From an uncultured Candidatus Bathyarchaeia archaeon (GTDB lineage: Archaea; Thermoproteota; Bathyarchaeia; Bathyarchaeales; Bathycorpusculaceae): a stretch of DNA of 64,000 nt. The translations under genes and the position numbers were made by a program. The DNA is taken from assembly GCA_964450845.1 (NCBI GenBank), contig CAYVGZ010000001.1, forward strand, positions 15,060-79,059. Direction: 5' to 3'. Shown here in pieces: positions 32,966 to 51,004 of this stretch; position 1 is the stretch's first letter, and each line of letters starts with the position of its first letter. The notes beneath the pieces were generated by a model. That model was not told the DNA's origin. It made no database searches and was given only the letters and a program-made list of their open reading frames with translations.

Positions 32966-33027
32966 TTTGAAATTAATAAGCCTTAGTCTTTGAAAATTGA
33001 CTATGGCTTATTATATCTTGGAGAAGA

Positions 33028-34176: not shown

Positions 34177-34178
34177 AT

Positions 34179-35687
34179 ATGGCAAGCAAACAAATGAAAA
34201 CCGCCGACTTTAACGAGGCTACGGTTGAAAGAAATTCAAGTCTTAGAAATACTAATAATGCCATATCTACTATTCAACAAAATGCTAATGAAGCCTTCTT
34301 TAAATCATATAAAGAACAACAGAGTCCAGACCCTGAAAGTCCAGAAAGAAAGAACTATAGAACATATCCATATGATTATTTTTCTGGAATTGATGCTAAA
34401 GTATTCTTTGGTGATGTCTGGGTAGACGACATAATTACAATACAATATACTGTTTCTCAAAATAAGATACCAATTTATGGTTATGCTTCGCAGCTTTATG
34501 ATGCAGTAGCAAGAGGAACAGTTATAGTAAACGGATCGGTTACTATTGCTTTTAAAGAAATGGGTTACCTGAACATGGTTCAACGACTCATTGATACTCA
34601 GCAACAGGGAGCAGTTTCTGCTCTTGAACAAACTGTTAGGAAGTACGCAGCTAAGGCAGCAGAGAACCGCCTTCAGTTTATACCAAATCTTCAAGGAACT
34701 CCAGACAGAAATGGAGAAAATGTTGGAGGCTTAGATAAGCTTGGTTTTTCTCCTACTGGCACAGCTCAGATAATTAGACAAGCTGAGACAATTGAAAGTA
34801 TATTACAGAGAAAAAAAGGTGGAAATAAAGGAGAAGGTAATATCATTTCTGCTGGCCTAGGCGCAGCTTATTTTGATGAGACTAATCCAAATGGCAACAG
34901 AGATTTTGAAGACTTTGCTGAAATACTGGAAGATACTATTTGGGGAGATAGTAATGGTAGACCTCTTGGAAAAACTCTAAAGTACAGAAGAGCGGATGAG
35001 TTTGATTATAAATGGGGTACAAGAGGAGAAGATACAGGGGCAGTAAAAGTTGGTCGAGACGACTATGCTGGTTGTCTTAACATACTAATGACCTTTGGTG
35101 ATATGAATGATTTTAGGGCAGAGCACACAGTCATAGCTTTAAATGATGTACACTTTTTGTCACAAAGCGTTATCTTGTCTCCTACTGGAGATCCTATTGG
35201 GGAAACATATAATTTCTTTGCTAGAGATATTAATCAAAATATAACTAGTAAGACCTTTAATGTTCCTGAAATAAAGTTTCAACTTGGAGATGGTGTAAGC
35301 CCATCAAAACTAGCAGACATCGAAGCATTACAAAACTATATAGATTATAAAGAAAGTATTAAAGAGATTAAGATTTATACAGTTGCTTCTTTCCGAGAAG
35401 GAGAAGAGTGGGTTACACAAAGAAGTCAAAAACCAATAGTCTCTAGCACATCTATTAACTTTAACTCTCGAGAACCATTCACTGATCAGCTTATCAGAAT
35501 AGTAGAAAATCTTATTAATAATATATCTTATTCAGAAATCGATACAACATATGCTCAACATATTCTTGAAGTAGAAATTGTATCAGCTGCAGATCCAGGA
35601 CTTGTGGATACGTATGGCGGGCTATCTGAAGCGACTGTTACTCCTGGAAACCCTATTATGAGAAATCAAGAAGGAGAACTACAATAA
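34179..35687 (+). CDS. Distant tube-like paralog 3 (502 aa)
   Basis: IQYTVSQNKIPIYGYAS...GSVTIAFKEMGYLNMV and ...LNILMTFGDMN...GDPIGETYNFFARDI follow the same block order as paralogs 1 and 2, with large insertions. Confidence 0.35.
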   Translation: MASKQMKTADFNEATVERNSSLRNTNNAISTIQQNANEAFFKSYKEQQSPDPESPERKNYRTYPYDYFSGIDAKVFFGDVWVDDIITIQYTVSQNKIPIYGYASQLYDAVARGTVIVNGSVTIAFKEMGYLNMVQRLIDTQQQGAVSALEQTVRKYAAKAAENRLQFIPNLQGTPDRNGENVGGLDKLGFSPTGTAQIIRQAETIESILQRKKGGNKGEGNIISAGLGAAYFDETNPNGNRDFEDFAEILEDTIWGDSNGRPLGKTLKYRRADEFDYKWGTRGEDTGAVKVGRDDYAGCLNILMTFGDMNDFRAEHTVIALNDVHFLSQSVILSPTGDPIGETYNFFARDINQNITSKTFNVPEIKFQLGDGVSPSKLADIEALQNYIDYKESIKEIKIYTVASFREGEEWVTQRSQKPIVSSTSINFNSREPFTDQLIRIVENLINNISYSEIDTTYAQHILEVEIVSAADPGLVDTYGGLSEATVTPGNPIMRNQEGELQ

Positions 35688-36826
35688 TGTCTAATCCTCT
35701 TAGATTTGTTGTTCAGCAACAGATAGCTGGAACCTATACCTATAAAGTTATATATCCAACTAGGAATAACTTTGCCGCTGTTAATATATTTGATAGAGAA
35801 ACTATGTGGGCTCCAATCACAGCAGAACAGCTTCAGGCTAATAAAGATAAAGAAGCCATTTTAAAGAATGAAGAAGCAGCAAGAAAAGTACAAGATGCAG
35901 AAAATAATCAGAATTTAGAAGATAAGAATAAGCCAGTTTCTACAGATCCTGTTACAGCTGATAATATAAAATCAGCTGAATCAATTAAAGAATCAATTAA
36001 ACAAGATGCACAGACTTCCGCCCCATCAGATGCAACGCGCGTAGAACAAGGCGAGCTTGGACCTGCCACTCAAAAGAAACCTGGAGAAACAGACCAAGAG
36101 TTTGCAGAACGAATTTTTCTTGGATCAGGTGCAGAACCAAGCGCGGTATCTGAACAACAAGTTCAAGTTGATAAATTCAATGGTGGTAAAAGTGGCGGTA
36201 GTGGGGCAAGTGGTACATATGAATCTAATTCTGAAGCAGCAGCAAGAGAATCGCTCGCTAGAGAAGAAAAGCTTTCTGAATCACAGGCGACTATACCTGA
36301 GACCACAATAATTACTCCTAATATAGATACTTTTAATCTAAGTTTAGAAGAGCAAGCTAAACTAGCAGAGGCCCAAGTTTCACAAAACCCTACACCAGCT
36401 AATGCTCAGAGCTCTGGTAAACTAAAACAAGCACTAAAAAAGTATTATAATATTGAAACAAAGAGTGAAGCGGTTAATGTTGACGCATTAAAGACGGAAG
36501 CAATTAATGCCGCTATAGCTTCTAGTAAGATATATCAAAAGTATAAAAAAACTGCGATAATTACTAGCGCATATGATAGCTTTGAAGAGCATGCTATTAA
36601 TTCTGCCCATAGGGACGGAAGAGCTATAGACTTACAAACTCAAAGGCTAGGCCTAACACCAGAAGAAAAGATCTCTATAGCCAATGATATTCAAAAAGAA
36701 TTAAATAACATATCATATGGCTATACTGTTTTACTTGAAGATAGGGGCGGAGAATCAGAACATATTCATATACAATTTAACGGTACCTCACAAGATGATG
36801 TGCAACGAAATATACTAGATGAGTAA
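35687..36826 (+). CDS. Tail-module protein with C-terminal M15-type zinc peptidase domain (virion-associated lysin candidate)
   Basis: ITSAYDSFEEHAINSAHRDGRAIDL...GGESEHIHIQF. This is the SxHxxGxAxD ... HxH pattern of M15A/VanY-like peptidases. The N-terminal half is low-complexity. Confidence 0.55.
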   Translation: MSNPLRFVVQQQIAGTYTYKVIYPTRNNFAAVNIFDRETMWAPITAEQLQANKDKEAILKNEEAARKVQDAENNQNLEDKNKPVSTDPVTADNIKSAESIKESIKQDAQTSAPSDATRVEQGELGPATQKKPGETDQEFAERIFLGSGAEPSAVSEQQVQVDKFNGGKSGGSGASGTYESNSEAAARESLAREEKLSESQATIPETTIITPNIDTFNLSLEEQAKLAEAQVSQNPTPANAQSSGKLKQALKKYYNIETKSEAVNVDALKTEAINAAIASSKIYQKYKKTAIITSAYDSFEEHAINSAHRDGRAIDLQTQRLGLTPEEKISIANDIQKELNNISYGYTVLLEDRGGESEHIHIQFNGTSQDDVQRNILDE

Positions 36827-36847: not shown

Positions 36848-37159
36848 ATGAAAGAAGAAAAGATAACAAAAGAACAGATCGAAAAGTGGAAGAACGATTA
36901 TAAGTTTGTTTACAGAGCAACTATTGATAACGTAGATTATTATTTTAGAACGTTATCTAGAGATGATTATTTATCTATATCAGCAAAGCAAGCAACTCTT
37001 GGTCAAGGTCTAGACTATGAGCTTGAAACTGTAAAGGTTTGCCTATTAAATGATATAGATGAGGCAACACTTAAGGCTAAGTCAGGTATAGTTACGATTC
37101 TCTCTGAAAAAATAATGACTCGATCAGGCTTTTTACAAGTCGAAGAAGAAGAGCTATAA
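36848..37159 (+). CDS. Tail assembly chaperone-position protein (103 aa)
   Basis: Small acidic ORF two genes upstream of the tape-measure-position gene. Called on position only. Confidence 0.35.
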   Translation: MKEEKITKEQIEKWKNDYKFVYRATIDNVDYYFRTLSRDDYLSISAKQATLGQGLDYELETVKVCLLNDIDEATLKAKSGIVTILSEKIMTRSGFLQVEEEEL

Positions 37160-37219: not shown

Positions 37220-37786
37220 ATGACTAAAAATACAACATTTTATAGAATTAAACATCAAAATAAAGAGATACTTTATAAAGACCTGTCTGTTAGTACTCTT
37301 TGCTACTTAGAAAATATTAAAAATGAGGTAAATAGAAACGAACTTGCAGCCAAAGCAAGCATCATATCTCCAACCAATTTAGAAGAAATTCCTTGGCCTA
37401 TCCTACAACAGGTAGGGCGCAATGCTATTGAAAACTCTGTCAAATATATATCAGACAAGCAGCTTTTTGAGATCTTAGTTAAAGAATATAGAGAAGGTTT
37501 AACAGATGGCAGCAGCCCGCTTAGCATGATTAAACATATAATGGTCGCATTTCCAGGTCAATCTATCACAGAACTTTTAAAACTAACATGGAAAGACCTG
37601 GTAGAATTAGTTTGTTTATCAGAAGAAGTCATTGGTAAAAGGATTTTTAATGTGGGTGGAGCCCCTGCTGCACCTAGAAGAAAAGGATCTAGACTTGTTA
37701 ATTCTAGTCTTTTTACTAATGATGGAAAAAGCCTACAAGAAAAGATGAACGAACTAAATAATATTCTTGGCGGAATTCCAAAATAA
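37220..37786 (+). CDS. Tail assembly chaperone-position protein (188 aa)
   Basis: SD AAGGAGGAG. TAATG-coupled to the 2052-aa gene. In the same frame as the 103-aa ORF. Confidence 0.35.
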   Translation: MTKNTTFYRIKHQNKEILYKDLSVSTLCYLENIKNEVNRNELAAKASIISPTNLEEIPWPILQQVGRNAIENSVKYISDKQLFEILVKEYREGLTDGSSPLSMIKHIMVAFPGQSITELLKLTWKDLVELVCLSEEVIGKRIFNVGGAPAAPRRKGSRLVNSSLFTNDGKSLQEKMNELNNILGGIPK

Positions 37787-40700
37787 TGGCTCAACATAAT
37801 CCTTATGATACTGGGTCAGATTACTACGACCCATATCAAAACTCTCAACAAGCACCTGGCCCAAACCTCGGAAATTTAGTACTAAATGCAGCTAAAACAA
37901 TGGTTGTCTTTGGTATTTTAAATACAGTTGGCAGAGGCGCCAGCAAGGTATTTAGCTCAAAAGCTGCGTCAATAGTAACTAGATATAGCAAGACTGCTGC
38001 AACTATACAAAAAGCAACTGGAGCTAATACTTTAGGAGGTTTGTTTGCTGGAACAAGCGCTGGAAAAGAAATTAATAAGATCTTTTCTGGAGCAACTAAA
38101 TCATTTAGTTCAGCACTTAAGTCTAAAGACGCATACGTAGCTAGTGTTGCTAGGACTCAAGGAGCAGGTGCTGCAAAGATAGCTGGCTTTAAGTCTTCGT
38201 TTAAAGATATGCGAACCTTTGCTGGAACTGTTGGCAGAGCATGGAAAAATACTGTTTGGGCTGGCGCTGGTGTTGCGTATGCGATAGATACCTTCGCTGG
38301 CGTTACTCGTGATTATGGAATTAAACCTAAAGCATGGTACGATGTTCCTGGTCAAATAGGAAACTTTGGCAAATGGCTTGCTATTAATTCTATATACTGT
38401 ATGGGATTCAAGGGTGCCACAAAATTTGCGCAAATGGCTGGGTCCAAAGGAATGCAGAGTGTTAGCAATGTATTTAAAGGTCCATTAGGCAAGGCATCTG
38501 CACAATTCCTTGAACGTGTATTAGCTGATGGTGCTCCAGCGGGATTACGAAGAACATCTTCTCAGGGTGGTACCATATTTAAGAAACAGATCTTTGATAA
38601 TATACCACAAGAACGAGTAAGATCTAATTTTAATCAGCACTTCGTTTCATCTGGCGTTCGTAACATGCTTGCATTTGGAAAAACAGTACCAGGGGCAATT
38701 AGAACTCTTAACGAAACCTTTCATCAATTTGGACAGAATTTTAAAGATGCTATATCTACTGACCAAGTTAAGATAGGCAGAGTTCTAAAAAGAACATTAT
38801 CAGACCCAGTTGCAGGTGCTATAAAACAGATAAAGAATCAGTTTCGTGCTAATCGAGTAATGAGAAAAGAACTGTCTCCTGTAGAACATGCTGGGTTAAA
38901 TGTTTTACAGTTTGCTGATGATTATGCTGCTAAACTTGGTGCAGGCTCTCAAGCTAATAAAACTAGGAAAGAGCAAGTAGAATTCTCAGTATTAGCTAGG
39001 AGAATAGCAAAGATAGGAAAAGCTCAGCAAGGTAGAAGAATCCTGGCAGATAAAATATTTCCTGAACTTGATAGAGTAACTAATAGAGATCTGGTAGATC
39101 AAGATTGGGTTACTAGGACTCAAGGAGTATATGCAAAACACTTTGGTGCAGATAGGGCTAAGGTATTTATGGACAGCATTCTTAACATGCATGCTGGTCT
39201 ACATATGTACAAACCAAAGGGCGGAAAGATAAAAGGCGCAGGCATTGATTTAAGCCTATTTGACCCAGTATATAGTCTTAAGAAAACAATGGGACGAGTT
39301 CTTAATAAGAATATTAAAGTACCATTTACTAATCAAGATATTAACTTCGGTGATATTCTTCAAGTTAATTTTTTGCTAAAAGATTCTCCTAGTTTTGACT
39401 TCTTTAAAGGCCCTCAAGACTTTGCTATTGGAGAAAATGCAAAGGCTCTTACATTTAGATTAGACCATGGAACAGTAAAATCTTCTAGTCAATTAGATAA
39501 AGAAGCGTGGTTTACCATAGGTATGAAGGGTGAACTTGCTGTTGTTGGGCCTGGCGGGATAAGTATAGTAAAAACTGGTAATAAACTAGGCTTGTCAGCC
39601 CCCAATAGCGGACTAAAGAAAGCAGAAAGGTCTAGAATTGAACGAGCTGTTCTTGGCGGAGAACAAGGAGAAACGAGACCATTAGCAGATACTGGTAATA
39701 GGTTTTTAGACTTTTTTATAAATAAAACTCAACTAAGCTGGCCAGGAATTGCTAGGCGTTTGGGAAGGAAAGTTGTTGGTGCAATTGAAGGTAAAAATGC
39801 AAAGTTTTTAGATGCAACTACTGGATTTGCAGGAGCATTTACAGATAACCCAGCGGAATGGTATAAGCGTGGAGATATTATACATGCTATTAAAGAAGCA
39901 ACTGGGCAGGATGTAGCAGCATTAATGCGAAATGGCGAGTTTCATTCAATGCTTGGAAAGCTTTCTGGAGCAACTGCTTTTGGAGATTCATTTGATGTAC
40001 TTTATAATGCTAGGAGTCTTAGAGATAAATTAACAGATATTGAAATGAAACTAGGTGATGAGTTTGGCCACTGGCTAAATAAGCGAGGCATAGCAGAAGA
40101 CGTAGCACTAATAAAAGCGGATCCAACTTATGCAGCAAATCACACAACTACAAAGAGACTTGGTCATAGAATGGAAATGAATCCTTATGATAAAGTTAGG
40201 CTAGCCCTTGTAGAGGATGCATTTGTAGATAGCTTTAATGTAGGAGACGGCATTGAACACCCTGTAATAAATGCTATTCCCGAGCTTCTTAAAAAAGGAG
40301 CAATCAATGAAAAGCAAGCTAAGTCTCTAGCTTTATTCGCCAAACTTTCTGCTTTTACCAATACAGGTATGTATGACAGAAAGAATGGTATGTCTCCAAC
40401 TGGAGACATACTTAATGCTGGTAGAAATATTCTTAGACGATCTCATCAGTTAAACTGGAACATACAGCAAGATATAATAAACTATGTTAAGACTAGTGAT
40501 TTTAGATCTGCGTCAGTTAGAGATATAGGCGATATCAAAGTGCACGACCCAAATGCCTTTGTATTCAAAAATAATACAGCATACGCTAGTATTCAAATGA
40601 ATCCAATGGGCTTTGCAAAGGATTGGGTAGAGACAGTATTTGATAATGTTAATAACATGTTACACGATACGATATTTCCATTTAGAAAGGATCCTACCAA

Positions 40701-43700
40701 GAATCTTTCTATCAAAGGTAATGCTAAGTATCTATTTGGAGGCCTAGCAAAGATAGCAGCTGGAGCCTTTGCTGTAAAGGCCCTAGATGCTGTTATAGCA
40801 GCTAATCCGTTGTTTGATGATACTGCACTAGATGCTGGTATAGGTGGCTTCCTAGCGGATAATGTGGCCCGTGCAAGGCTTGGACAATCAAGAGTATTTG
40901 ATGCATTAGGTTTTACTGGAATCGCTAAGCATATTAATGGACTAATGCCTGGATTTACTACTACAGCGCCAGGAGCAGTTATAGGTTCTGTTGTTTCTAG
41001 AACATTGGGTGGCGGTATGTTAGGCGGGTTTGCGTGGGGCGCAATTGGAAACAGAATATTAGCTCCTTATCTTCCTGACTTCACTAAAGACTATCAACAG
41101 CTAGAAGACGAGTACCAAGGAAAATCAGAAGTTCCAATTATGAAGGCACCAACGTGGCTTCTAGGCGCAACTCCATGGGAAGGATCTAAAGTAATTGGAT
41201 ATCAGCCTAACTGGTATGTAAGAATCAAGAGCCGCTGGAAGGAAACAGATACTCTATACGGTTCTACATTTAGAAAGCTTTTACATGAACCATTACCATT
41301 CTTAGGTATTTCTATTGGAGACTTTGTTGACCCATATTACATGGAAAGAAAGCATTATTTTTCTAGACCTTATCCAGAAACTGGCGAATGGGGAAAAGAA
41401 GTGCCTCTAGTTGGACCTTTAATTGCTGGAACTTTGGGCCGTATTTTCAAGCCAAAGAAAACAATGCATCAAGAGTTTTTAACAGGACCAAATGATTTAA
41501 GTGAAAATTCTACCTATCCGTTTGCTATACAACCTCCTACTGTACAAGAGCAGGAAGGTATGATGGCTCACGATAGAGGATTAAGGACTATGGGCGGACG
41601 CTCTGCCTTAATGGGCAGCTATGTATATGGTAGTGATTCTAAAATGTGGGCACACGCTGCTGGTGAAGATTTTTTAAACAATATTATGGACTTTACTGGT
41701 CTTCCTGGATTCCTAGCCAAGACCGCTCAAGGAAAACTTGTTAATAGACCGATAGTTATGCCTACCCTAGAAACTGCAGGTCGTATGGCATCAATGTCAA
41801 GGTCTTACTATGATATGAATCTAGGAGGTATGGGAGTATTTACAGAACCTGTTCGAAGATTAATTGATAAACCTGATTATAGAAGATATGGTTTAAATCC
41901 AATACCTAATATGATGCCAAACTGGTTACCAAATGAATTTTTATCAGGCGATCCTTACGCCAAGATAATTAGGGGAGAACTTAGGTTACCAGGTGCAGCG
42001 TACCAAGCTACTCATAAGGTTAAGAAAACAATGCCTGCTAGATCGTCTATGTTTGGTGCTCCAGAAGAACATATAATACAGTACTTCACTGGACTTCTTC
42101 CACCTCTACTAAAAGAAGAGTACGATATATTGTCTACTGGTACTACAATGCACGAGAAGATACAAGACTCATTAGCAGCAGAGGGATTATTGATTCAAGC
42201 AGAAGCAGTTGTGTATGATGTTAAAAATGATATATCTGGCCACGTTGATGCTATAGTTAGAGATGGGCAAGGCGGTAAAGGCAGAAGAGCGTTAGAAATT
42301 AAAAGTATAAACCAAGCTGCATTTGATAAACTAGAGGGGCCAAAAGACCAGCACATTGGACAGCTTAACTTTTATTTGAAAATGCTTAATCTTCAAAAAG
42401 GAACTCTTATGTATGTTAGCAGAGACAATCCTGCTAATGTCAAACTTTTTAATATTAACTATAGTAAGACTAGATATTTAAAAGACCTTAAAAAGCTTCA
42501 AAAGTCTAGACAGATCGCCGCCGACATGATGAAAGAAGGAGTAGATGATAAGTTTGGCTATGCATATTCTTGGCTAGATAGGCTTAATATCTTAGCTGAC
42601 GTAGGTCCTGCATCTCAAGAATTTAAAGAAGCAAAGTATTTTGTAGAACAACAAATTAAATACGGAATGTTGACTGACGCAGAAATAACTAAATATGATA
42701 AAGCGCTTAAACACAGACAAGCTAGGATTAGAAAGTATGAGCTCTATCCAAATAGATTTAAAGGTAAAATATTAAGTCCTGACCACGAAAGACAGATACA
42801 ATCTATTAATGAAGATATTAAAGCTGGTGTCGAATATACTCTTCCAGAAAGAGTAATAGGAGCAGCATGGGAAACTCTAACAAACTCTAATACGTTCCTT
42901 ACTAATAAATTATTAGCCTTTAAAGATCCTCTAGAACATTATAAAATGCTTCAACTTTATGGAAAAGAATATAAACCTTGGGATGAAGTTTATAACTCGT
43001 TTATTGATCCTGCACTTAAAGGTATGGCTGCACAAACTGGTCCTTTAGGTGGGGCCTATAAATTTGGAATGCCTGCTTATATGTTTTTAGGTAATATAGG
43101 TGCAGTTGCTGGAGGTCTTATTGGTGCTGGGTATGGCACAGTTCATGGATTATATAGACATTTTAGCGATTCTGCTTATATACCAGAACAAGTTAAAGAA
43201 CGAAGAGACATAGAGCAGTATTTTGACGAAGCTAAGTATGAACGTAATAGAAGAATGCTAGAGCTTTCTAGCGGCCTGGCTGCGAGAGAATATCAGGATG
43301 CTATGAATGCTACTCTTACTGCTTTTAATCAAAGTGGTGAGGACATAGCTAATCTATTTAGGGCTACTCCTTATATGGAAAAGCCGTATATTTCTGCATG
43401 GCTTGGTATTAAGAATAAAAAAGAAAGACAAGAAGTACTTAAATATATTCCTAAAGAGTTAAAGCAAGCACTAAAAAATCAATGGAACATGCTTGATCAA
43501 AAAGACGAAAATCAAGAATATGAAAAGTCGAGTAGTGAGTTTATAGCTGGCGGCGGATTAAAACATAAATTTGATAGGAGTATATTAGACCCTTCTGTTA
43601 GGCTTGAAGATATTAAACTAAAAACAGTTGAAGATGCTGGTTTTTCAGCCCATGATTTTGGACTTGGATGGAATGACCAGATGTATAGAATGCAAGACAA

Positions 43701-43944
43701 CTATAATAAGATTAGGTCAGCAGAAATAGCTCCAGCTCAAGAATACTCACCGCCAGATATTAATTCTGGTCAAGTAAGGCAGGCAATTATTAATATGATA
43801 CATCAGCGAAATTATAAGGGTTCTGCAGCTGTATATGTTAATGAAGGCGCAAACGATATTAATTTTTTAAACATTACAATTAGAAGAGATAGGTCCCTTA
43901 CTATAATTAATGCAATGAGAAACGCGTCACAGTACTATGGCTAA
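37786..43944 (+). CDS. Giant tape-measure-position protein (2052 aa) with embedded RecB/Cas4-like PD-(D/E)XK nuclease motifs
   Basis: Located after the chaperone-position ORFs. Has Gly/Ala-rich hydrophobic segments at aa ~30-230 and ~1000-1100. aa 1440-1560: STGTTMHEKIQ...ISGHVDAIVRD(D1488)...RRALEIKS(E1504,K1506)...HIGQLNFYL(Q1526,Y1530). Confidence 0.5.
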   Translation: MAQHNPYDTGSDYYDPYQNSQQAPGPNLGNLVLNAAKTMVVFGILNTVGRGASKVFSSKAASIVTRYSKTAATIQKATGANTLGGLFAGTSAGKEINKIFSGATKSFSSALKSKDAYVASVARTQGAGAAKIAGFKSSFKDMRTFAGTVGRAWKNTVWAGAGVAYAIDTFAGVTRDYGIKPKAWYDVPGQIGNFGKWLAINSIYCMGFKGATKFAQMAGSKGMQSVSNVFKGPLGKASAQFLERVLADGAPAGLRRTSSQGGTIFKKQIFDNIPQERVRSNFNQHFVSSGVRNMLAFGKTVPGAIRTLNETFHQFGQNFKDAISTDQVKIGRVLKRTLSDPVAGAIKQIKNQFRANRVMRKELSPVEHAGLNVLQFADDYAAKLGAGSQANKTRKEQVEFSVLARRIAKIGKAQQGRRILADKIFPELDRVTNRDLVDQDWVTRTQGVYAKHFGADRAKVFMDSILNMHAGLHMYKPKGGKIKGAGIDLSLFDPVYSLKKTMGRVLNKNIKVPFTNQDINFGDILQVNFLLKDSPSFDFFKGPQDFAIGENAKALTFRLDHGTVKSSSQLDKEAWFTIGMKGELAVVGPGGISIVKTGNKLGLSAPNSGLKKAERSRIERAVLGGEQGETRPLADTGNRFLDFFINKTQLSWPGIARRLGRKVVGAIEGKNAKFLDATTGFAGAFTDNPAEWYKRGDIIHAIKEATGQDVAALMRNGEFHSMLGKLSGATAFGDSFDVLYNARSLRDKLTDIEMKLGDEFGHWLNKRGIAEDVALIKADPTYAANHTTTKRLGHRMEMNPYDKVRLALVEDAFVDSFNVGDGIEHPVINAIPELLKKGAINEKQAKSLALFAKLSAFTNTGMYDRKNGMSPTGDILNAGRNILRRSHQLNWNIQQDIINYVKTSDFRSASVRDIGDIKVHDPNAFVFKNNTAYASIQMNPMGFAKDWVETVFDNVNNMLHDTIFPFRKDPTKNLSIKGNAKYLFGGLAKIAAGAFAVKALDAVIAANPLFDDTALDAGIGGFLADNVARARLGQSRVFDALGFTGIAKHINGLMPGFTTTAPGAVIGSVVSRTLGGGMLGGFAWGAIGNRILAPYLPDFTKDYQQLEDEYQGKSEVPIMKAPTWLLGATPWEGSKVIGYQPNWYVRIKSRWKETDTLYGSTFRKLLHEPLPFLGISIGDFVDPYYMERKHYFSRPYPETGEWGKEVPLVGPLIAGTLGRIFKPKKTMHQEFLTGPNDLSENSTYPFAIQPPTVQEQEGMMAHDRGLRTMGGRSALMGSYVYGSDSKMWAHAAGEDFLNNIMDFTGLPGFLAKTAQGKLVNRPIVMPTLETAGRMASMSRSYYDMNLGGMGVFTEPVRRLIDKPDYRRYGLNPIPNMMPNWLPNEFLSGDPYAKIIRGELRLPGAAYQATHKVKKTMPARSSMFGAPEEHIIQYFTGLLPPLLKEEYDILSTGTTMHEKIQDSLAAEGLLIQAEAVVYDVKNDISGHVDAIVRDGQGGKGRRALEIKSINQAAFDKLEGPKDQHIGQLNFYLKMLNLQKGTLMYVSRDNPANVKLFNINYSKTRYLKDLKKLQKSRQIAADMMKEGVDDKFGYAYSWLDRLNILADVGPASQEFKEAKYFVEQQIKYGMLTDAEITKYDKALKHRQARIRKYELYPNRFKGKILSPDHERQIQSINEDIKAGVEYTLPERVIGAAWETLTNSNTFLTNKLLAFKDPLEHYKMLQLYGKEYKPWDEVYNSFIDPALKGMAAQTGPLGGAYKFGMPAYMFLGNIGAVAGGLIGAGYGTVHGLYRHFSDSAYIPEQVKERRDIEQYFDEAKYERNRRMLELSSGLAAREYQDAMNATLTAFNQSGEDIANLFRATPYMEKPYISAWLGIKNKKERQEVLKYIPKELKQALKNQWNMLDQKDENQEYEKSSSEFIAGGGLKHKFDRSILDPSVRLEDIKLKTVEDAGFSAHDFGLGWNDQMYRMQDNYNKIRSAEIAPAQEYSPPDINSGQVRQAIINMIHQRNYKGSAAVYVNEGANDINFLNITIRRDRSLTIINAMRNASQYYG

Positions 43945-46900
43945 TTACAATCCTTTTAAACGACGAGACGACCAAGATAAAGAAGACAAGAATTGGTTTA
44001 TGAAAACCTCTATTAAAGTTGCTGCTGGCGCTGGTACTGCCTTCGGTATATATGGTCTATGGAAAATGAGAGGACCAGCTAAGAAAATTTTGGAAGAAGC
44101 AATGGATAAAGAAATGAAAAGAAAAATATCCATTGAACAGTCCAATAACATGGATAAGCACTCATTTGACATAGCTGAAAACTGGAATAAAGAACAGAGA
44201 GACCTTCTTAATGAGACTTGGGGAGAAGGAAAAAATCCATTCTTTGCTGATCCTAAAGAATCATGGGGAAAAGTAGATACGCCAGAATACACTAAGATAA
44301 ATATTTCTATTATTGAAACAGATATAATTTCTGACTTAGAACGCGAGGCATCATATCTATCGCCTAATGCAGAAATTAGAAAAATACAGCCAGGCGAGCA
44401 CTTTTCTGGAGCAGACTGGATAGCTATAAATAAAAAGAAAACAAAGATATTAAGAAAGGTTGTATCTCTTTCTGGATCAGAAGCAGAACAATTTGCTAGA
44501 CTTAGACAAGAGGCTATCGCTGAATACCTAGAAACCTATATGTTTACAGGCGTTGAACGAGAAGTTGCTGAACGTTTAGAAGAGATGTCAGAGCTTTCAA
44601 CATATTTTTCTAGTAAAGACTATCTTGATTCTGACCGTATTACTGATGGGTTTGGAAAAAAATCAGTTGATAGAATTACCACTATCCATAATGCATATAT
44701 GGAAGATAAGCAATATGCTGACATATATCAAAGAAAAATAAAACAACTATATAGAAGGTTTAAACTTTTTAGCCATAGAACTAGAACAGCTAAGATAGGA
44801 GAACCAGAACGAGTTCAATTTAATGGTGGAGGATATAGGAAGGCTCTTTATGGAAACATTCTAGGAGAAGTAATAGACCCAAAAAGCCTAGCGTCAAAAC
44901 CTCTATCTGCTCTTCCTTTGTTTGATAGCACTAATCCTGAAGTCAAGATGACCAAGGATATAACTTCTATGGGATCTAATAACTGGGGTCCAGAGAATAG
45001 ATTTAGCAAATTGCAGCAGACTAATTATACAGGTAGGATATTCAATTTGGATAAAACATTGAAAGGCTTACAAGACGAAGGAAATATTGCTGGATATTCT
45101 ATTACATTAATTGATTATGGTACTAAGTCGTTTCCAGATAAGAGGCTTAGAATTAGCTTGCTTCATACTGATGCCGCTATTGGTAAAAATAAAAGTTACC
45201 AAATAGAAATTCCGCTTGGAATTGATGGTAGAATACCTGGCGCGACACCTGGGCTACAGTATGCTGCAGAAAGATATCATATAGTTGGTAATGTGTATGG
45301 TAAGTCAGATGAGATGGTGCAGCTCATCAATACTACTGAACTTAATTTAATAGAAGTAGAAAAAGCTCTTAAAGGATCCTTAATGACAGGGTGGGATTCA
45401 TTTCAAGATAATCCTGATAAATTTGTTCGTCAAGTAAATAGAATGGTTCGTCAGATAATAGCTCAGAACGCTACAGCTAATGGCAGCAGATATGATTTAT
45501 ACAATGCTATGTCAGTAGACATACCCGCTATACGTGATCTTTTTGATTCATCAAGACCAAAGTTTGCTTCCGCTAGGAGAACAGCTGAAAGCTACATTTC
45601 TTCTGCAAGGGCAATGAAAAGAATAATTAATGCTAGGCATAATAAGAAAAAATCAGTAGTAATTAACTTAGACTTAGAAACATTAGATAATACTGGAGCA
45701 TCCCCTGGGGCCGCCATCCTTTCTAAAAACTCTCAGATTACTAAGTATGGTATAGTTGTACAAGATATGAATTCTGCTAAAATATTAGATCACTTTGAAG
45801 AATCTAACTGGTCTGGTTATAAGCATTTTAAAAATATCGACAATAGAAGGAAAGGCACAGGATTTAATGATAAATTAAGGAAATGGTTGAGAGACAGTGT
45901 ACTTCCCGAAGGTACACCAGTAGGTATGGAAGTTGAGGCATATGAAGAACTATTAAAAAATGAAGGTGCAGTTGATGTCGGAGACAGGACAGCTGTTGTA
46001 AAACGTATCACTGATAAAGTTAGAGCTATTAAAGCTGACCTTATGAAAAAAGGATATTCTGAAGACGAGATTTTCATAGCAACTAAGAACGGATTTATGT
46101 TCGACCTGCGCGCCATTAACATGGATGACCAAAGCTTTGCTAAGGAGTTTGAGGGAAACTTTATAGATATACAAGCTCTTCATGCTTTTAAAAATAATGC
46201 ACTTGGTGAAAATAATGCTCTAAACATTGAGCGCGTAATGCAACGCTTAATGGGGGAAATTGGCGAGCCAGGTGTTAACTATTCTATAAAAAATCAAGCG
46301 GGTATTACTAATATAATGAAGGCTCTTAAGAAAAAGGGAAGATCTATTCAAGGTGGAGGGACATCATTATTGAACTGGACTGATCCATTTTGGGAATATA
46401 AGGGCCGTGCTGGTATAGTAAAAGCTCACGGATCTCCTAGGGTAGACGCTGCGTTTGTTGCTGCACTATTAATGAAAGAAGTCGCTAGCTATACTGCAGA
46501 AAGCAGCTATCTAGATCACGCAGATTATATGGCTCGTCTTCTAAAAATGTCGTCTGGCCCAAGACGTCCAGAAGACCTTATAGAACTTTTTAGAATGATT
46601 AATGAGAAATATTTTGAAGGCTTTGGTGTAGCTAGTTTTAGAAGCTCTTCACAAAGAATGATATCAAATTTAGTTGCTAACTTTATTGAACCTGCTGAAA
46701 TGTCGGCGTTTGCTGATCCATATAATACAAGCGGAATTAGAAGAAGACATGCTATGCCCTTTAACTTGAGATTAAAGAAAAGTTATATTGATAAGTTTGG
46801 AGGTCCAGCAAATGCAGCTAATCTTCATAAGCAACATCTTGGCGAGTTTTTAATGACAACTAGTATAGAAGATGCAAACCGTGCACTGAACAACTATATA

Positions 46901-49900
46901 ATGAGAACAGACGATGCTGTAAATCATTTTTCAAATGCAGTATTAGCTGATACACTATATACGTTAGACTTAGAAAAGGAGCCAACCCTTGCTGTCTCTG
47001 AAGGCCTAGCTAAAAAATATGAGCAGGTAAAAATAGTTAACCTTCAAACAGATACATTAGTTGGAGACGAAAGAGTTAATGCTAAGATATTAGAATTTAA
47101 TAGACAAGTAGATAAGCGGGCTAAAGAGATCGCTGGCGGAAAATTTATTTCACCAGAAATAATAGAAGCAGCTGAGAAAGAAGTTGCAGGCAAGGGTGAC
47201 TGGGGAATAGACTTGTCTAGCGAAATTTTATCTGCAGGTAAGTATGGTGGAGAAGTTAAGACTAGAAGAAAGTCTCTTCATGGTAGAATAGTTTCGGCGT
47301 TACTAGAACCTGATAAAACATCACTTGGTAAGACTTCAGTTAGACGTCTATTAGTTAAGGTTGAAGAAACTATTTCTGGCAGAGATATATTCTTTGGGTC
47401 TCAAGCACAAACACCAGCAAGCCATGCTCTAATCGGAAATATTACTGTACTATCAGAAGGTATATCAAAAAGAATACTTGGTGCAGGTAAAGACTTTGTA
47501 ATGAGTAATACTCCAGAATTTTTAAAGAAGGGTCATATTGGGTCTGCTAAGGATGTAATGATTAGCGGACTACTTAAAAAATTATATACAGACCATGAAA
47601 CTACAACTGATCCTGCTACTAAGCGTAGTATTAAAAAGCTTATTGATAAAATTACAAGGGCCCTGGATGCCACTCCAGACATTGAAGGAAATAGAGTTAT
47701 ATTTAATAAGAAAGATATTGCTTATTCTAGTGACCTTAAAACTAGAGTACTAGGTAGTACTGATGTTAGATTAAAACAGATTATTCAATGGTATAAACAA
47801 GCTGGAATAGTCTGGAATAAAACTGAAATCGAAGACCTACATAAAAATGGATTTAGATTTGAAGCAACCTTTAAACCATATATGGATCATTTTAAAAAGA
47901 TGTCCAGACTAAGCGACGAACAGCTTAAAGCAACCTATGAGGGATGGGAAGGTCTTACTAAAGAAGGACTAAATGCAGCTAGGGATGATATTAAGGCATT
48001 TGAGAAAATGATGTATGATAATGTTCATAATACAGAAGGATCAGTAAAGCTATTTAGAGTTGTTCCTCAGATTGATCAAGGCTTCACCCTTGGTATTTTA
48101 GGTTATGGACCAGTAGCATTATATAGGCAAGATGCTAGGGGACTAACTAATAAAGACCTAACGTTTAGACAAGACTACTTCTTAGGGCTTAGACATACAT
48201 ATCATGGTCAAGATAAAACTACCATGGACTTTGTAGCTAGGCACACCTTTGCTTCAAGGTTTGATACATATAAGTCTGTCAGAAGAACATATACAAGATT
48301 TCTCGACCAACTCTTTTCTGAAAGACTAACTAAAGAACCTCTTAATATTAATGCTCTAGACTATTTACTAGATATTAAACAAAGGATTGCTTTACAATCT
48401 AAAGAAGCAGAAATGGCAAGTAGAAAAACTTGGAGCAATATGAGTGCTGGTGAACTGGCAGCTGCCGCTCGAGATAGAGATAATTTATTAGAAAAAAAAT
48501 TAGAGCTTACTGGAGCAGAAGCAGATGCTCTTAAACGTGAACGATTAGAGATAGCGGACGCTCTAAATGCTAAAGAAGGCGGATCTAGAATACTAGAAAA
48601 TGTTAAAGGTATTAAGAGATTTTATACAACTAGAGACGTTGCAAAGTTATCAGAGATAGCTGCAGAAAATAATGGAATAGTGGCTTTTAGTTTACCTGTT
48701 TCAAATAATGCATTAGAAATTGATCTTGATCAAGTTGTAGATAGGTTTCAAGGACAAATGCCAGGGAAACCAAAGTGGGACGCAAAGCAAATTACAAGTG
48801 CTAAAGATAGGCTTAAAAGTATACTGAGAAATAAATTAAAAAACTCAACTAAAGATTCTCCACTAAGATTTAATGAAGACGGAAAGTTAGTATTGGGTGC
48901 TCTTGTTATGGACTGGGATCCAATGGCAGTTAATCAATTTGATCGTTTAAGATCAGTAGACGCTTGGAGGTCTAACGGTTCAACTGAAATCAAAATGAAT
49001 GTGCTTAGGGCATTACACGAATGGCAGAAAGTAGTAAAAGAAGCTGGCGGTGGCATGGGAACAGATGTTTCTGCTGCCCAAGATAAGTTTATCAGAGCTT
49101 GGACTGTCTTCATGCTTACTGGAACTAATGCTGATAAAAACTCTCAATTTTGGAAATCAGGTCAATATGCTCCGCCTTCCCTGAAGTCTTATGCGGCAGA
49201 TATGACACAACTTCAACGATCAGTTATACAACTTGAGCAGTCTAGACCAGGTGCGTTTAAAAGGTATCGTCAACAATTTAAATTACTTAAAGAAGCTAGG
49301 ATGGATACTGTACTTATATCTGAAGAGGCATTTAAAAAAATGAGAATGGTAAATCAAAATGGAGAACTAGTAAGCGCTGCTAGAATGATAGAAGATCATT
49401 TTAAGGCACAAAATTCTACAATTGGAAAAGAAATTGCAGAAGGTAGAAGATTGCTTCCTGGAGGACTAATAGAAAGATTTCCTATTCCTCAAGCAGGAGA
49501 CAGAGGTATGCAGACGATTAATTATTTAGTAATGCCAAAAAAAGCATTAGAAGCTCTTGGTGCAGATGCAAATGCTATTTATGTTAATCCTGTTTATTGG
49601 GCTGGACAAGGTGGTGACTTTGATGGAGACATTATATTTGCTCAATTAAAAGAACTTGGTATTTTTTATAAATATAAAGAGCTTAGAGAAGCAAATGATA
49701 GAACTTTTCAAAGAATACTTGAAACTCCTGATATGGTCGACTTTATGAAGAATAATCAAATCGTATTAGATTCTAAAGGAAACGTTACCAAAGAAGTAAA
49801 AATAGGAAATATGAATTCTGTATTATACAGTAAAGGCGACAAGACTCTTATTCATACTTATGATTTAAAAGGAAATGCCAAACAAGTATGGGTTGGCTCA

Positions 49901-51004
49901 CATATGTTAGATGTTAGTGATAGAGTTGGACATGTATTAAATCTAATTGGTGGTATGGCATCATCTAGTCCAGCGTATGCTACTAGTGCTAGGGTTTCAC
50001 AAATAGCTGAGTCTCAAGTTAATACCTTGATATCTAAAGAACTTATACCTCTTACAACTAACCTTCTCAAAAAGAGAGTCAAGCAGATTTATGGAGACGC
50101 GCACATTAGAAAAAATCCATTACGTGTTCAAAACTTTGTTGGAAATACATTGCATGGCCTTGCTGGTATGGCTCAGTCTGTAATAGACCTGGCTAAGCAC
50201 CCAGAAGAAAGAGCTAAGTTATCTAAGGTTTTAAACTTTTTCACTACTGGTAAGGCTACACCTGAGGTTAAAGAATTATATTTAGAGCTTGAAAAAAAGG
50301 TAAAGGGTAGTGCCTTTGACGAAGAATTAGCTTCTGCTGACTTTGATATACTCTCTGGCCGAATAGAAGCAATTGAAACTGTATCTAAACGTAATCCTAC
50401 TTTCAAAATGCATGAAAATGCTAAAGATATGTACTACATGGGAAAACAGGGAGCTACGGTATTTGACTCACTAATGTTTGATAGCGATACCTACTTTGAT
50501 AATTTATTTAGTCCATCAAAGCCAGCGTCAGCAATGGACCAGTTAAATACTGCTTTTTCTAAACGACTTGGTAAACAAGTAGATATCTCTCCTGTGTTTA
50601 AAAAGGCAGGTAAATATGGCGCAATCGGTTCCGCTGTATTTATGGGACTAAGTTTATTTACTCCATTTGGAAATAGTAAGTCATTGAATCCTATAGATAT
50701 GTTTACAGATATTGGAGATATAGACGGTCAGCGATCTTCAATTTCAAGCCCATTAGAATTGTCTAGATCACAGCCACTAGATATGGTTAATGCCTCTTTC
50801 TCAAAAGAAGCATTCATACGTCAGAATAAAAGCAATTCAAAGAAAAGCCAAGGGGCTATTATGAACTCTATATTACAGAGCTCAATGCTATCTAGAGTAG
50901 ATGCTCCTTTTGAATTTCAAGTATCTTATAAAGGAACGTATTCGAACTATACTAAGAGCATCAATATGATTGGAACCAAAGAGCTTAAAAGGAAATATGA
51001 ATAA
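43937..51004 (+). CDS. Giant protein (2355 aa) with DnaQ-like DEDD exonuclease motifs and a two-barrel RNA polymerase catalytic DPBB signature (DFDGD)
   Basis: N-terminal TM helix. Exo motifs are VVINLDLET (D579/E581), KNGFMFDLRAI (D723) and AHGSPRVDAAF (H831/D837). Polymerase signature is ERFPIPQAGD (R1847-D1855) ... AIYVNPVYWAGQGGDFDGDIIFAQ (D1894/D1896/D1898). Confidence 0.6.
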   Translation: MANYNPFKRRDDQDKEDKNWFMKTSIKVAAGAGTAFGIYGLWKMRGPAKKILEEAMDKEMKRKISIEQSNNMDKHSFDIAENWNKEQRDLLNETWGEGKNPFFADPKESWGKVDTPEYTKINISIIETDIISDLEREASYLSPNAEIRKIQPGEHFSGADWIAINKKKTKILRKVVSLSGSEAEQFARLRQEAIAEYLETYMFTGVEREVAERLEEMSELSTYFSSKDYLDSDRITDGFGKKSVDRITTIHNAYMEDKQYADIYQRKIKQLYRRFKLFSHRTRTAKIGEPERVQFNGGGYRKALYGNILGEVIDPKSLASKPLSALPLFDSTNPEVKMTKDITSMGSNNWGPENRFSKLQQTNYTGRIFNLDKTLKGLQDEGNIAGYSITLIDYGTKSFPDKRLRISLLHTDAAIGKNKSYQIEIPLGIDGRIPGATPGLQYAAERYHIVGNVYGKSDEMVQLINTTELNLIEVEKALKGSLMTGWDSFQDNPDKFVRQVNRMVRQIIAQNATANGSRYDLYNAMSVDIPAIRDLFDSSRPKFASARRTAESYISSARAMKRIINARHNKKKSVVINLDLETLDNTGASPGAAILSKNSQITKYGIVVQDMNSAKILDHFEESNWSGYKHFKNIDNRRKGTGFNDKLRKWLRDSVLPEGTPVGMEVEAYEELLKNEGAVDVGDRTAVVKRITDKVRAIKADLMKKGYSEDEIFIATKNGFMFDLRAINMDDQSFAKEFEGNFIDIQALHAFKNNALGENNALNIERVMQRLMGEIGEPGVNYSIKNQAGITNIMKALKKKGRSIQGGGTSLLNWTDPFWEYKGRAGIVKAHGSPRVDAAFVAALLMKEVASYTAESSYLDHADYMARLLKMSSGPRRPEDLIELFRMINEKYFEGFGVASFRSSSQRMISNLVANFIEPAEMSAFADPYNTSGIRRRHAMPFNLRLKKSYIDKFGGPANAANLHKQHLGEFLMTTSIEDANRALNNYIMRTDDAVNHFSNAVLADTLYTLDLEKEPTLAVSEGLAKKYEQVKIVNLQTDTLVGDERVNAKILEFNRQVDKRAKEIAGGKFISPEIIEAAEKEVAGKGDWGIDLSSEILSAGKYGGEVKTRRKSLHGRIVSALLEPDKTSLGKTSVRRLLVKVEETISGRDIFFGSQAQTPASHALIGNITVLSEGISKRILGAGKDFVMSNTPEFLKKGHIGSAKDVMISGLLKKLYTDHETTTDPATKRSIKKLIDKITRALDATPDIEGNRVIFNKKDIAYSSDLKTRVLGSTDVRLKQIIQWYKQAGIVWNKTEIEDLHKNGFRFEATFKPYMDHFKKMSRLSDEQLKATYEGWEGLTKEGLNAARDDIKAFEKMMYDNVHNTEGSVKLFRVVPQIDQGFTLGILGYGPVALYRQDARGLTNKDLTFRQDYFLGLRHTYHGQDKTTMDFVARHTFASRFDTYKSVRRTYTRFLDQLFSERLTKEPLNINALDYLLDIKQRIALQSKEAEMASRKTWSNMSAGELAAAARDRDNLLEKKLELTGAEADALKRERLEIADALNAKEGGSRILENVKGIKRFYTTRDVAKLSEIAAENNGIVAFSLPVSNNALEIDLDQVVDRFQGQMPGKPKWDAKQITSAKDRLKSILRNKLKNSTKDSPLRFNEDGKLVLGALVMDWDPMAVNQFDRLRSVDAWRSNGSTEIKMNVLRALHEWQKVVKEAGGGMGTDVSAAQDKFIRAWTVFMLTGTNADKNSQFWKSGQYAPPSLKSYAADMTQLQRSVIQLEQSRPGAFKRYRQQFKLLKEARMDTVLISEEAFKKMRMVNQNGELVSAARMIEDHFKAQNSTIGKEIAEGRRLLPGGLIERFPIPQAGDRGMQTINYLVMPKKALEALGADANAIYVNPVYWAGQGGDFDGDIIFAQLKELGIFYKYKELREANDRTFQRILETPDMVDFMKNNQIVLDSKGNVTKEVKIGNMNSVLYSKGDKTLIHTYDLKGNAKQVWVGSHMLDVSDRVGHVLNLIGGMASSSPAYATSARVSQIAESQVNTLISKELIPLTTNLLKKRVKQIYGDAHIRKNPLRVQNFVGNTLHGLAGMAQSVIDLAKHPEERAKLSKVLNFFTTGKATPEVKELYLELEKKVKGSAFDEELASADFDILSGRIEAIETVSKRNPTFKMHENAKDMYYMGKQGATVFDSLMFDSDTYFDNLFSPSKPASAMDQLNTAFSKRLGKQVDISPVFKKAGKYGAIGSAVFMGLSLFTPFGNSKSLNPIDMFTDIGDIDGQRSSISSPLELSRSQPLDMVNASFSKEAFIRQNKSNSKKSQGAIMNSILQSSMLSRVDAPFEFQVSYKGTYSNYTKSINMIGTKELKRKYE
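50944..50955 (+). promoter_or_regulatory. GAACTATACTAA motif copy inside the 3' end of the 2355-aa gene
   Basis: The 15-mer GAACTATACTAAGAG is identical to 19436-19450. TATACT ends 51 nt before ATG 51004. Confidence 0.3.

Follow-up and report, generated by a model that had tools for sequence, protein, structure and literature searches.

The window analysed here, a stretch of 64,000 nucleotides from contig CAYVGZ010000001.1 (positions 15,060 to 79,059 of the forward strand; assembly GCA_964450845.1, filed under an uncultured Candidatus Bathyarchaeia archaeon), is the structural module of a myovirus. One of its open reading frames (ORFs), ORF1, encodes a giant protein in which a sequence-only reading of the window had noticed, at 42100-42470, a set of PD-(D/E)XK nuclease motifs. 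The motif set proved to be real: the interval corresponds to ORF1 amino acids 1439-1562, the quoted peptide is present there, and the residue numbers given for GTTMH(1456)EKIQ, GHVD(1488)AIV, LE(1504)IK(1506)S and Q(1526)LNFY(1530) are exact. The complete inserted domain is slightly larger than the interval first reported. The gene, the domain and the sequence elements within and around it are as follows.

37786 to 43944, plus strand: ORF1, a single uninterrupted frame of 2052 amino acids
41947 to 41994, plus strand: upstream flank GDPYAK...GELRLPG, common to nuclease-bearing and nuclease-less forms and a frequent intein site in relatives
42022 to 42546, plus strand: inserted PD-(D/E)XK nuclease domain of the Cas4/lambda-Exo/RecB branch, amino acids ~1413-1587 (~175 amino acids), from PHROG, Foldseek and nuclease-less homologues
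42151 to 42153, plus strand: H1456, motif I (GTTMHEKIQ), conserved in 155 of 160 homologous domains
42247 to 42249, plus strand: D1488, motif II (GHVD), conserved in 159 of 160 and aligned to the motif of Cas4 SSO0001
42295 to 42303, plus strand: E1504-I-K1506, motif III (D/E)xK, with E in 117, D in 40 and K in 158 of 160
42361 to 42375, plus strand: Q1526-L-N-F-Y1530, the QhxxY motif, with Q and Y each in 157 of 160
42574 to 42636, plus strand: downstream flank LDRLNILADVGPASQEFKEAK, common to nuclease-bearing and nuclease-less forms

Profile searches matched amino acids ~1447-1568 to phrog_1706 'CRISPR/Cas system associated' (E 1.6e-21), phrog_2506 'exonuclease' (E 6.4e-12), phrog_1990 'Cas4-domain exonuclease' (E 4.2e-07) and phrog_434 'RecE-like recombination exonuclease' (E 1.9e-05). 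Among PDB sequences the best match was Cas4 SSO0001 (4ic1), with an E value of 0.03 for the single sequence and 0.008 with a profile, in an alignment that runs through the GxxD, ExK and QxxxY motifs. The nuclease domain itself had no match in Pfam at E <= 1, and a search with 22 family members produced one weak match, to PDDEXK_3, indicating that Pfam does not cover this nuclease subfamily. A six-frame scan with the domain profile found one copy only in the window.

Structure comparison gave the same answer. Two AlphaFold models were used, one of the nuclease domain alone (an alignment of 10 sequences; predicted local distance difference test, pLDDT, 69.8) and one of ORF1 amino acids 1085-2052 (968 residues, 22 sequences), in which the nuclease region reached a pLDDT of 80-92. 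Foldseek searches with the first model retrieved SSO0001 (E 5.6e-6), MGME1, lambda exonuclease, LHK-Exo and RecE, with the nuclease chains of AdnAB ranking lower, and the second model retrieved the same Cas4/MGME1/lambda-Exo/RecE folds. For both models, PD-(D/E)XK folds of this group were the only matches at E <= 1e-3, and the rest of amino acids 1085-2052 outside the nuclease had no significant PDB structure match in the Foldseek search with the second model. By this comparison both models contain the alpha-beta-beta-beta-alpha-beta core of the restriction-endonuclease-like fold. Among the viral predicted structures of BFVD, the domain matched phage proteins named Cas4, PD-(D/E)XK nuclease, exonuclease and YqaJ recombinase. 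The assignment to the RecB/Cas4/lambda-exonuclease branch made in the sequence-only reading, which had named a profile or structure match as its check, is thus upheld by profile and structure alike.

The catalytic residues, whose loss among homologues would by the sequence-only reading have spoken against the finding, were conserved across a wide range of homologues. The 160 homologous domains counted above are hits drawn from 50%-identity cluster representatives, and the D/(E|D)/K/Q/Y set was intact in 154 of them; in one further protein, P0030, an intein interrupts an otherwise intact set. Full-length homologues (41-75% identity), an intein-bearing homologue of 3536 amino acids and gp145 of Bacillus phage 0305phi8-36 all keep the H, D, (E/D)xK and QxxxY positions, so that the conservation extends down to ~30% identity. 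As judged from these alignments, the catalytic residues of the nuclease domain are under strong purifying selection. We are confident that ORF1 carries a genuine PD-(D/E)XK nuclease domain, predicted to be catalytically competent and lying within a virion tail protein.

Although it falls within the branch that includes Cas4, the domain lacks the hallmark of Cas4 proper. It contains no cysteine, and neither do 158 of the 160 homologous domains, indicating that it would hold no Fe-S cluster, the feature that defines true Cas4 proteins. Its score against the NCBIfam cas4 profile (TIGR00372) was 20 bits, the cut-off being 65, and its neighbours are tail-module genes, with no cas1/cas2 or CRISPR context seen, although no dedicated CRISPR scan was made. 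The best free-standing match in the phage collection was NrS3_26 of Nitratiruptor phage NrS-3 (291 amino acids, 57 bits against the domain profile), whose gene lies directly upstream of genes for a 'phage recombination protein Beta' and a single-stranded DNA-binding protein. Further matches were actinophage genes labelled 'Cas4 exonuclease', an Eggerthella phage 'exonuclease' and a 'CRISPR/Cas system associated' protein of Bacillus phage BCD7. Since the closest free-standing relatives sit in recombination modules, the most likely donor of the domain is the exonuclease component of a phage recombination system. No gene for an annealing protein (Red-beta, RecT or Erf) adjoins ORF1 in the window, which is part of a genome of ~197 kb.

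Comparison with nuclease-less homologues identified the nuclease as a clean insertion between two conserved motifs. The consensus of the flanks is ...GDPYxK...GE(L/M)RLPGxxY(E/Q) upstream and FGxY..DR..ILADVAPxSxEYK downstream, and the space between them is occupied by ~175 amino acids in nuclease-bearing proteins and by a linker of roughly 5-15 amino acids in the nuclease-less proteins P0011-P0016 and gp035 of Acinetobacter phage ME3. In the seven nuclease-less homologues aligned, no other domain was seen at the site, only the short linker. Within ORF1 as a whole, only the C-terminal half (amino acids ~1000-2000) is widely conserved, while the N-terminal ~1000 amino acids are common to close relatives only. 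Phage ME3 was also observed to encode a separate protein of 301 amino acids that matches the nuclease structurally (BFVD A0A172Q052), its gp035 being without the insert, which hints, from this single genome, that fused and free-standing forms may substitute for each other.

A profile search covering 1.84 billion representatives of 50%-identity clusters returned 1919 proteins at E <= 1e-3, of which 482 reached E <= 1e-10; among the 150 matches listed, nearly all were proteins of 1300-4900 amino acids. This search was biased in that its query was the nuclease, and a search with a profile of the shared flank, aimed at the ratio of the two forms, returned short fragments only. In a neighbour-joining tree of the flanks, three nuclease-less proteins were scattered among nuclease-bearing lineages and ME3 gp035 lay outside; the tree is a rough one, with biased sampling and without support values. 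This scatter favours an old insertion with occasional loss as the probable history of the domain. Recent horizontal import of the insert was ruled out by composition, as its GC content and its GC content at third codon positions equal those of the rest of the gene. Where homologues are named, the name is 'hypothetical protein' or, once, 'intein/homing endonuclease'. An intein or homing-endonuclease origin of the insert itself was ruled out by missing splice junctions, flank-like composition and a conserved site.

The gp145-like family was found to be rich in inteins. A survey of ORF1 homologues (P0010, P0017-P0071 and others) identified at least 10 distinct insertion sites in the conserved C-terminal half, with Cys...HN(S/T/C) junctions, at positions corresponding to ORF1 amino acids ~1130, 1188, 1355, 1383, 1392, 1404, 1439, 1524, 1606, 1690-1699 and 1905. 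Some 17 representatives have an intein after GDPY, and that of P0030 lies directly before the catalytic Q of the nuclease. These inteins account for family members of 2400-4900 amino acids. ORF1 of the window is without an intein. The same stretch carries, at 280-5250 on the plus strand, a ribonucleotide reductase gene (1656 amino acids) interrupted by inteins, with Pfam matches to Intein_splicing (two stretches), LAGLIDADG_3 (two stretches) and Hom_end.

The genes surrounding ORF1 form an ordered head and tail module.

15119: large terminase gene
19704: portal gene
24411: major capsid protein gene
29426 to 32176: tail sheath gene
32228 to 32965, 33028 to 34176 and 34179 to 35687, plus strand: tail tube protein and two paralogues, in tandem
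35687 to 36826, plus strand: 379-amino-acid protein, between the tube paralogues and the chaperone gene
36848 to 37159, plus strand: tail assembly chaperone homologue of 103 amino acids, by BLASTP to 0305phi8-36 gp143/gp144
37220 to 37786, plus strand: 188-amino-acid gene, the second small gene before ORF1, at the gp144 position (by position only, without a sequence match)
43937 to 51004, plus strand: ORF2, 2355 amino acids, at the gp146 position
51188 to 58627, plus strand: ORF3, 2479 amino acids, at the position of the baseplate hub gp147
59420 and 59959: baseplate genes

The stop codon of the 188-amino-acid gene overlaps the start of ORF1 (ATAATG at 37783-37788) and the start of ORF2 overlaps the stop of ORF1 by 8 nucleotides (43937-43944), suggesting that the three genes are expressed jointly; they appear to be translationally coupled. 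Two side observations concern the upstream neighbours. The tube paralogues at 32228-35687 match phrog_9206, labelled 'major head protein', and the corresponding 0305phi8-36 genes have the product name 'major head protein' yet carry the note 'tail tube' or 'tail tube paralog'. The head-protein label seems to be an annotation error passed on between records, and the genes encode tube proteins. The 379-amino-acid protein, which occupies the position of the virion protein gp142, ends in 'SAHRDGRAIDL ... ESEHIHIQF', which resembles a zinc site of the H-x(3-6)-D / H-x-H kind found in LAS-type (M15/VanY-like) peptidases of the cell wall; the sole support for that reading is a faint match to Pfam HH_signal (E 0.056).

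This arrangement mirrors that of 0305phi8-36, in which ORF137-148 run in the order sheath, tube, tube paralogue, gp142, gp143, gp144, gp145, gp146, gp147 and a P2 gpV-like protein, and the window runs from sheath through tube, tube paralogues, chaperone, ORF1, ORF2 and hub to baseplate. There gp143 and gp144 are tail chaperonins, gp145 has 1930 amino acids, gp146 (2537 amino acids) is a 'hypothetical tape measure protein' and gp147 is a hub with peptidoglycan-degrading domains; according to the record annotation, gp145, gp146 and gp147 were identified in virions by mass spectrometry. The 103-amino-acid gene at 36848 matched the domain common to gp143 and gp144 (BLASTP, E 1.4e-7 and 4.3e-7), and ORF1 aligned with gp145 in five collinear segments over the C-terminal half, with E values down to 1e-19 (tblastn and BLASTP). 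From this collinear homology and the shared gene order, ORF1 is identified as the counterpart of gp145. The two proteins share ~28-30% identity over the C-terminal half and the nuclease insertion, whose motifs in gp145 read H, D, DxK and QxxxY, and both lie between tail chaperonin genes and the giants at the gp146 and gp147 positions. However, gp145 has an extra insert of ~60 amino acids inside the nuclease and D for E in motif III, and the N-terminal halves of the two proteins show no relationship.

The gene order of the window recurs in phage ME3. The terminase groups the window's phage with 0305phi8-36, ME3, the Bacillus phages Edson, WH1 and KLEB27-3 and the Moorella phage MTATph1, at 24-30% identity. 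The best explanation of these data is an uncultivated jumbo myovirus of the 0305phi8-36 lineage. A megablast search of the ORF1 gene against 50,697 phage records gave no match, indicating that the phage has no close sequenced relative among them.

The sequence-only reading had placed the nuclease in the protein at the tape-measure position. The position stands, ORF1 lying directly after the chaperone genes and between tube and baseplate, whereas in 0305phi8-36 the tape-measure label belongs to the next gene: its authors gave that role to gp146 (PMC2147016), and gp145 bears the name 'virion structural protein'. ORF1 had no Pfam match and, outside the nuclease, no Pfam or PHROG family match. It contains three weak hydrophobic Gly/Ala-rich segments (amino acids 27-45, 982-1000 and 1764-1782), and in the AlphaFold model of amino acids 1085-2052 its C-terminal half is predicted to be largely helical apart from the nuclease. 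In locus L004 a single giant gene, that of the nuclease-less homologue P0012, directly follows the chaperone-position genes; a gene of 2867 amino acids starts ~10 kb downstream, and the genes downstream of P0012 match only PHROGs of unknown function. ORF1 may be the tape measure, a second lumen protein, or both. The literature searched, including PMC2147016 and PMC7824862, describes neither a function nor a nuclease domain for gp145-like proteins.

The components of this architecture have parallels in characterised systems. The closest sequence relatives of the domain are free-standing phage Cas4-like and RecB-like exonucleases (NrS3_26 and members of PHROG 1706, 2506, 1990 and 434), which share its motifs; these, however, are proteins of 200-350 amino acids made after infection in replication and recombination modules, whereas the ORF1 domain is embedded in a tail-module virion protein of 2052 amino acids. 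The best structural matches, Cas4 SSO0001 (4ic1), lambda exonuclease (1avq, 3slp), RecE (3h4r) and MGME1 (5zyv), align at the catalytic motifs with Foldseek E values of 5.6e-6 to 4e-4, template modelling (TM) scores of about 0.5-0.6 and 11-21% identity. The ORF1 domain, unlike Cas4, has no Fe-S cysteines; it scores below the curated cas4 cut-off, and no CRISPR context was seen. Catalytic modules within long tail proteins also have precedent. The tape measure protein of mycobacteriophage TM4, a long tail-lumen protein expelled at infection, carries one with an Rpf-like motif (PMC1796659), and work cited in PMC8570332 and PMC4870245 attributes embedded modules to T5 pb2 and the muramidase tape measure of phiIPLA35. 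All three act on peptidoglycan; the ORF1 module is instead a predicted DNA nuclease in a putative tape measure. Extracellular contractile injection systems deliver pre-made protein via a contractile tail, as proposed here for ORF1, but there the cargo is separate (PMC6748791). Polyvalent proteins combine many effector domains with processing peptidases (PMC5512222), whereas ORF1 has one recognisable enzymatic domain in the modelled C-terminal 968 amino acids, and no Pfam match to a large polyvalent protein associated domain or a peptidase was obtained for ORF1 or 22 relatives. T4 gp4 and gp2, like ORF1 in its proposed role, are virion-borne and handle genome ends (PMC7824862), but they are head or neck proteins of other families, gp4 acting in packaging and gp2 binding ends without cutting. 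The fold and motifs are thus textbook material, and muralytic tape measure modules and pre-loaded cargo in contractile systems are known; a conserved DNA nuclease in a tail-lumen or tape-measure-position protein was not found described in the literature searched.

Building on the established fold, intact catalytic residues, insertion architecture and gene position with its synteny, we infer for the ORF1 nuclease ejection into the cell, an enzymatic activity, its polarity and its substrate. ORF1 would be a structural protein of the tail interior, encoded where the tape measure gene normally sits, and the ~175-amino-acid nuclease of Cas4/lambda-exonuclease type would have been inserted into a loop of its conserved C-terminal half during the evolution of the family. 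Upon tail contraction the protein would exit through the tube ahead of or with the DNA, so that the nuclease would already be on hand inside the cell ahead of all phage gene expression. Once inside, it would most likely resect DNA ends at the site of entry as a Mg-dependent 5'-3' exonuclease, with the phage's own genome ends as the most probable target. The 3' single strands uncovered in the terminal repeats would then be available for annealing, circularisation or recombination-primed replication, before host RecBCD/AddAB comes into play. Injected proteins that bind genome ends are exemplified by T4 gp2 and Mu N. An end-processing role is favoured because the nearest relatives are recombination exonucleases and because enzymes of this branch need DNA ends, the incoming genome providing the only new ends in the cell. 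Moreover, the domain has persisted at one site throughout a very large radiation, with no other cargo seen there in the nuclease-less homologues aligned, a pattern that suits a core step of infection better than arms-race cargo.

As a whole, this chain of a tail-delivered nuclease processing DNA ends at entry is a tentative proposal, which may well be correct but against which several points weigh. That a gp145-like protein leaves the virion and that its domain cuts DNA are steps we infer. No tape-measure PHROG or Pfam profile matches ORF1, and in 0305phi8-36 the tape-measure role was assigned to gp146 rather than gp145 (PMC2147016). Early expression of an exonuclease would serve the same end, the advantage of packaging one being conjecture, and the domain is missing from several lineages, those of ME3 gp035 and P0011-P0016 among them. 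Resecting its own incoming genome would be risky for the phage, and, with a tube lumen only about 4 nm wide, a domain of 18 kDa must either be accommodated there in its folded state or regain its fold after passage.

The main rival to end processing is an offensive role, in which the injected nuclease would attack the host chromosome, plasmids, resident prophages or the DNA parts of defence systems, shutting down the host or blunting immunity before phage gene expression. This would suit a domain in a protein expected to enter the cell, and it has precedents in the lumen cargo of contractile injection systems (PMC6748791) and in polyvalent proteins delivered with phage DNA (PMC5512222, PMC7824862). 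In BFVD, a structural homologue bears an annotation for a 'Large polyvalent protein associated domain'; some lineages can dispense with the nuclease, as with accessory effectors; and a prophage related to 0305phi8-36 has a staphylococcal nuclease, of a different fold, on its hub protein (PMC2147016), suggesting recurrent selection for a nuclease at the entry site. However, the substrates of this enzyme branch are DNA ends or single strands, which an intact circular chromosome does not offer; no immunity or inhibitor gene is apparent beside the domain; and its closest free-standing relatives lie in recombination rather than toxin modules. Unlike arms-race modules, it is not swapped for other effectors and is conserved over hundreds of 50%-identity clusters. 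An attack on the host is somewhat unlikely, although it deserves to be taken seriously, and the stable site together with the kinship to recombination exonucleases points at least as much to end processing as to degradation of host DNA.

The remaining explanations dispense with injection, with catalysis or with any benefit to the phage. The nuclease might act in assembly or within the finished virion, for instance trimming or holding the DNA end destined for the tail, in the manner of T4 gp4, a virion-associated nuclease of restriction-endonuclease fold needed for packaging according to work cited in PMC7824862. The ORF1 homologue gp145 is indeed a virion protein, but myovirus tails assemble apart from DNA-filled heads, and the top matches of the domain are Cas4 and lambda Exo, with no similarity to gp4/TnsA-type nucleases. 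Tape measure proteins, among them T5 pb2 and lambda gpH, have their C-terminal part at the tip of the tail. A nuclease in the C-terminal half of ORF1 would likewise be far from the DNA end at the neck, and we give this role little weight. We regard as similarly improbable that the fold has become a non-catalytic DNA-end-binding or structural module, for example a pilot dragging or protecting the leading DNA end. The Cas4-derived nucleocapsid protein TP1 of the archaeal virus TTV1 (PMC4625639) shows that such exaptation happens, and injected DNA-end binders exist in T4 gp2 (mentioned in PMC7824862) and Mu N; TP1, however, lost its catalytic residues, whereas those of the ORF1 family are kept in 154 of 160 diverged domains, which would be unexpected after loss of activity. 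Lastly, a selfish insertion, a homing-type endonuclease or mobile-element remnant without a role for the phage, might be suspected in a gene family full of mobile inteins and from the presence of the domain in some members and its absence from others. This is very improbable: both splice junctions are wanting (N-terminal Cys/Ser and C-terminal HN+Cys/Ser/Thr), so that without splicing the insert remains in the mature protein; it occupies the same site in very distant homologues and diverges in sequence in step with the protein around it; in composition it matches its flanks; and its relatives are exonucleases rather than homing enzymes of the LAGLIDADG, HNH or GIY-YIG type.

The architecture is widespread, as at least 482 representatives carry the domain at E <= 1e-10, and 0305phi8-36 gp145 offers a cultivable model. 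If the enzyme does enter with the DNA, it would bear on the early survival and processing of a very large linear jumbo-phage genome in the face of RecBCD/AddAB and restriction; if it is instead aimed at the host, it would represent a new class of injected anti-host enzyme. The catalytic residues offer clean point-mutant controls, which makes the question directly testable.

The giant gene downstream of ORF1 carries a motif of its own. At amino acids 1840-1898 ORF2 reads LPGG..R.P..QAG ... GGDFDGD, with DFDGD at amino acids 1894-1898 (nucleotides 49616-49630), a block reminiscent of the beta' subunit of RNA polymerase in its catalytic region, R-x-P...NADFDGD. All six ORF2 homologues keep DxDGD, five of them with the exact GGDFDGD, and the giants at the ORF2 position in two further loci (L002 and L006), unrelated by BLAST, each have DxDGD at 0.80 of their length. 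A PDB profile search with the motif region retrieved RNA polymerase beta' only, at NADFDGD, with a non-significant E value of 0.3. Searched as a whole against Pfam, PHROG, NCBIfam, the PDB sequences and the phage collection, ORF2 gave no match; homology to 0305phi8-36 gp146 was not detectable, the link being one of position only, and the DxDGD motif is absent from gp146 and from ME3 gp036. Paralogy of ORF1 and ORF2 was ruled out, as they share no similarity. ORF2 may be a virion-borne RNA polymerase, a lead rather than a result.

A more elaborate scheme would join these elements into an 'ejectosome', in which the three translationally linked giants are pre-loaded and a trimeric, tape-measure-like ORF1 for DNA-end processing passes through the tail together with an ORF2 polymerase. 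The three lambda-Exo-like domains of the ORF1 trimer would assemble into a ring where the entry channel opens into the cytoplasm. This ring would resect the phage genome from its leading end during entry, as the first step of recombination-driven circularisation or replication, and ORF2, with its beta'-like DFDGD, would be a co-injected RNA polymerase. We consider the complete scheme unlikely.

In ORF3, a region at amino acids 1518-1675 is endolysin-like (phrog_20474, E 8.9e-38). The protein also has four hydrophobic segments (amino acids ~999-1045 and 2302-2349), stronger than any in ORF1, and ORF3 could itself form the membrane channel or be the tape measure.

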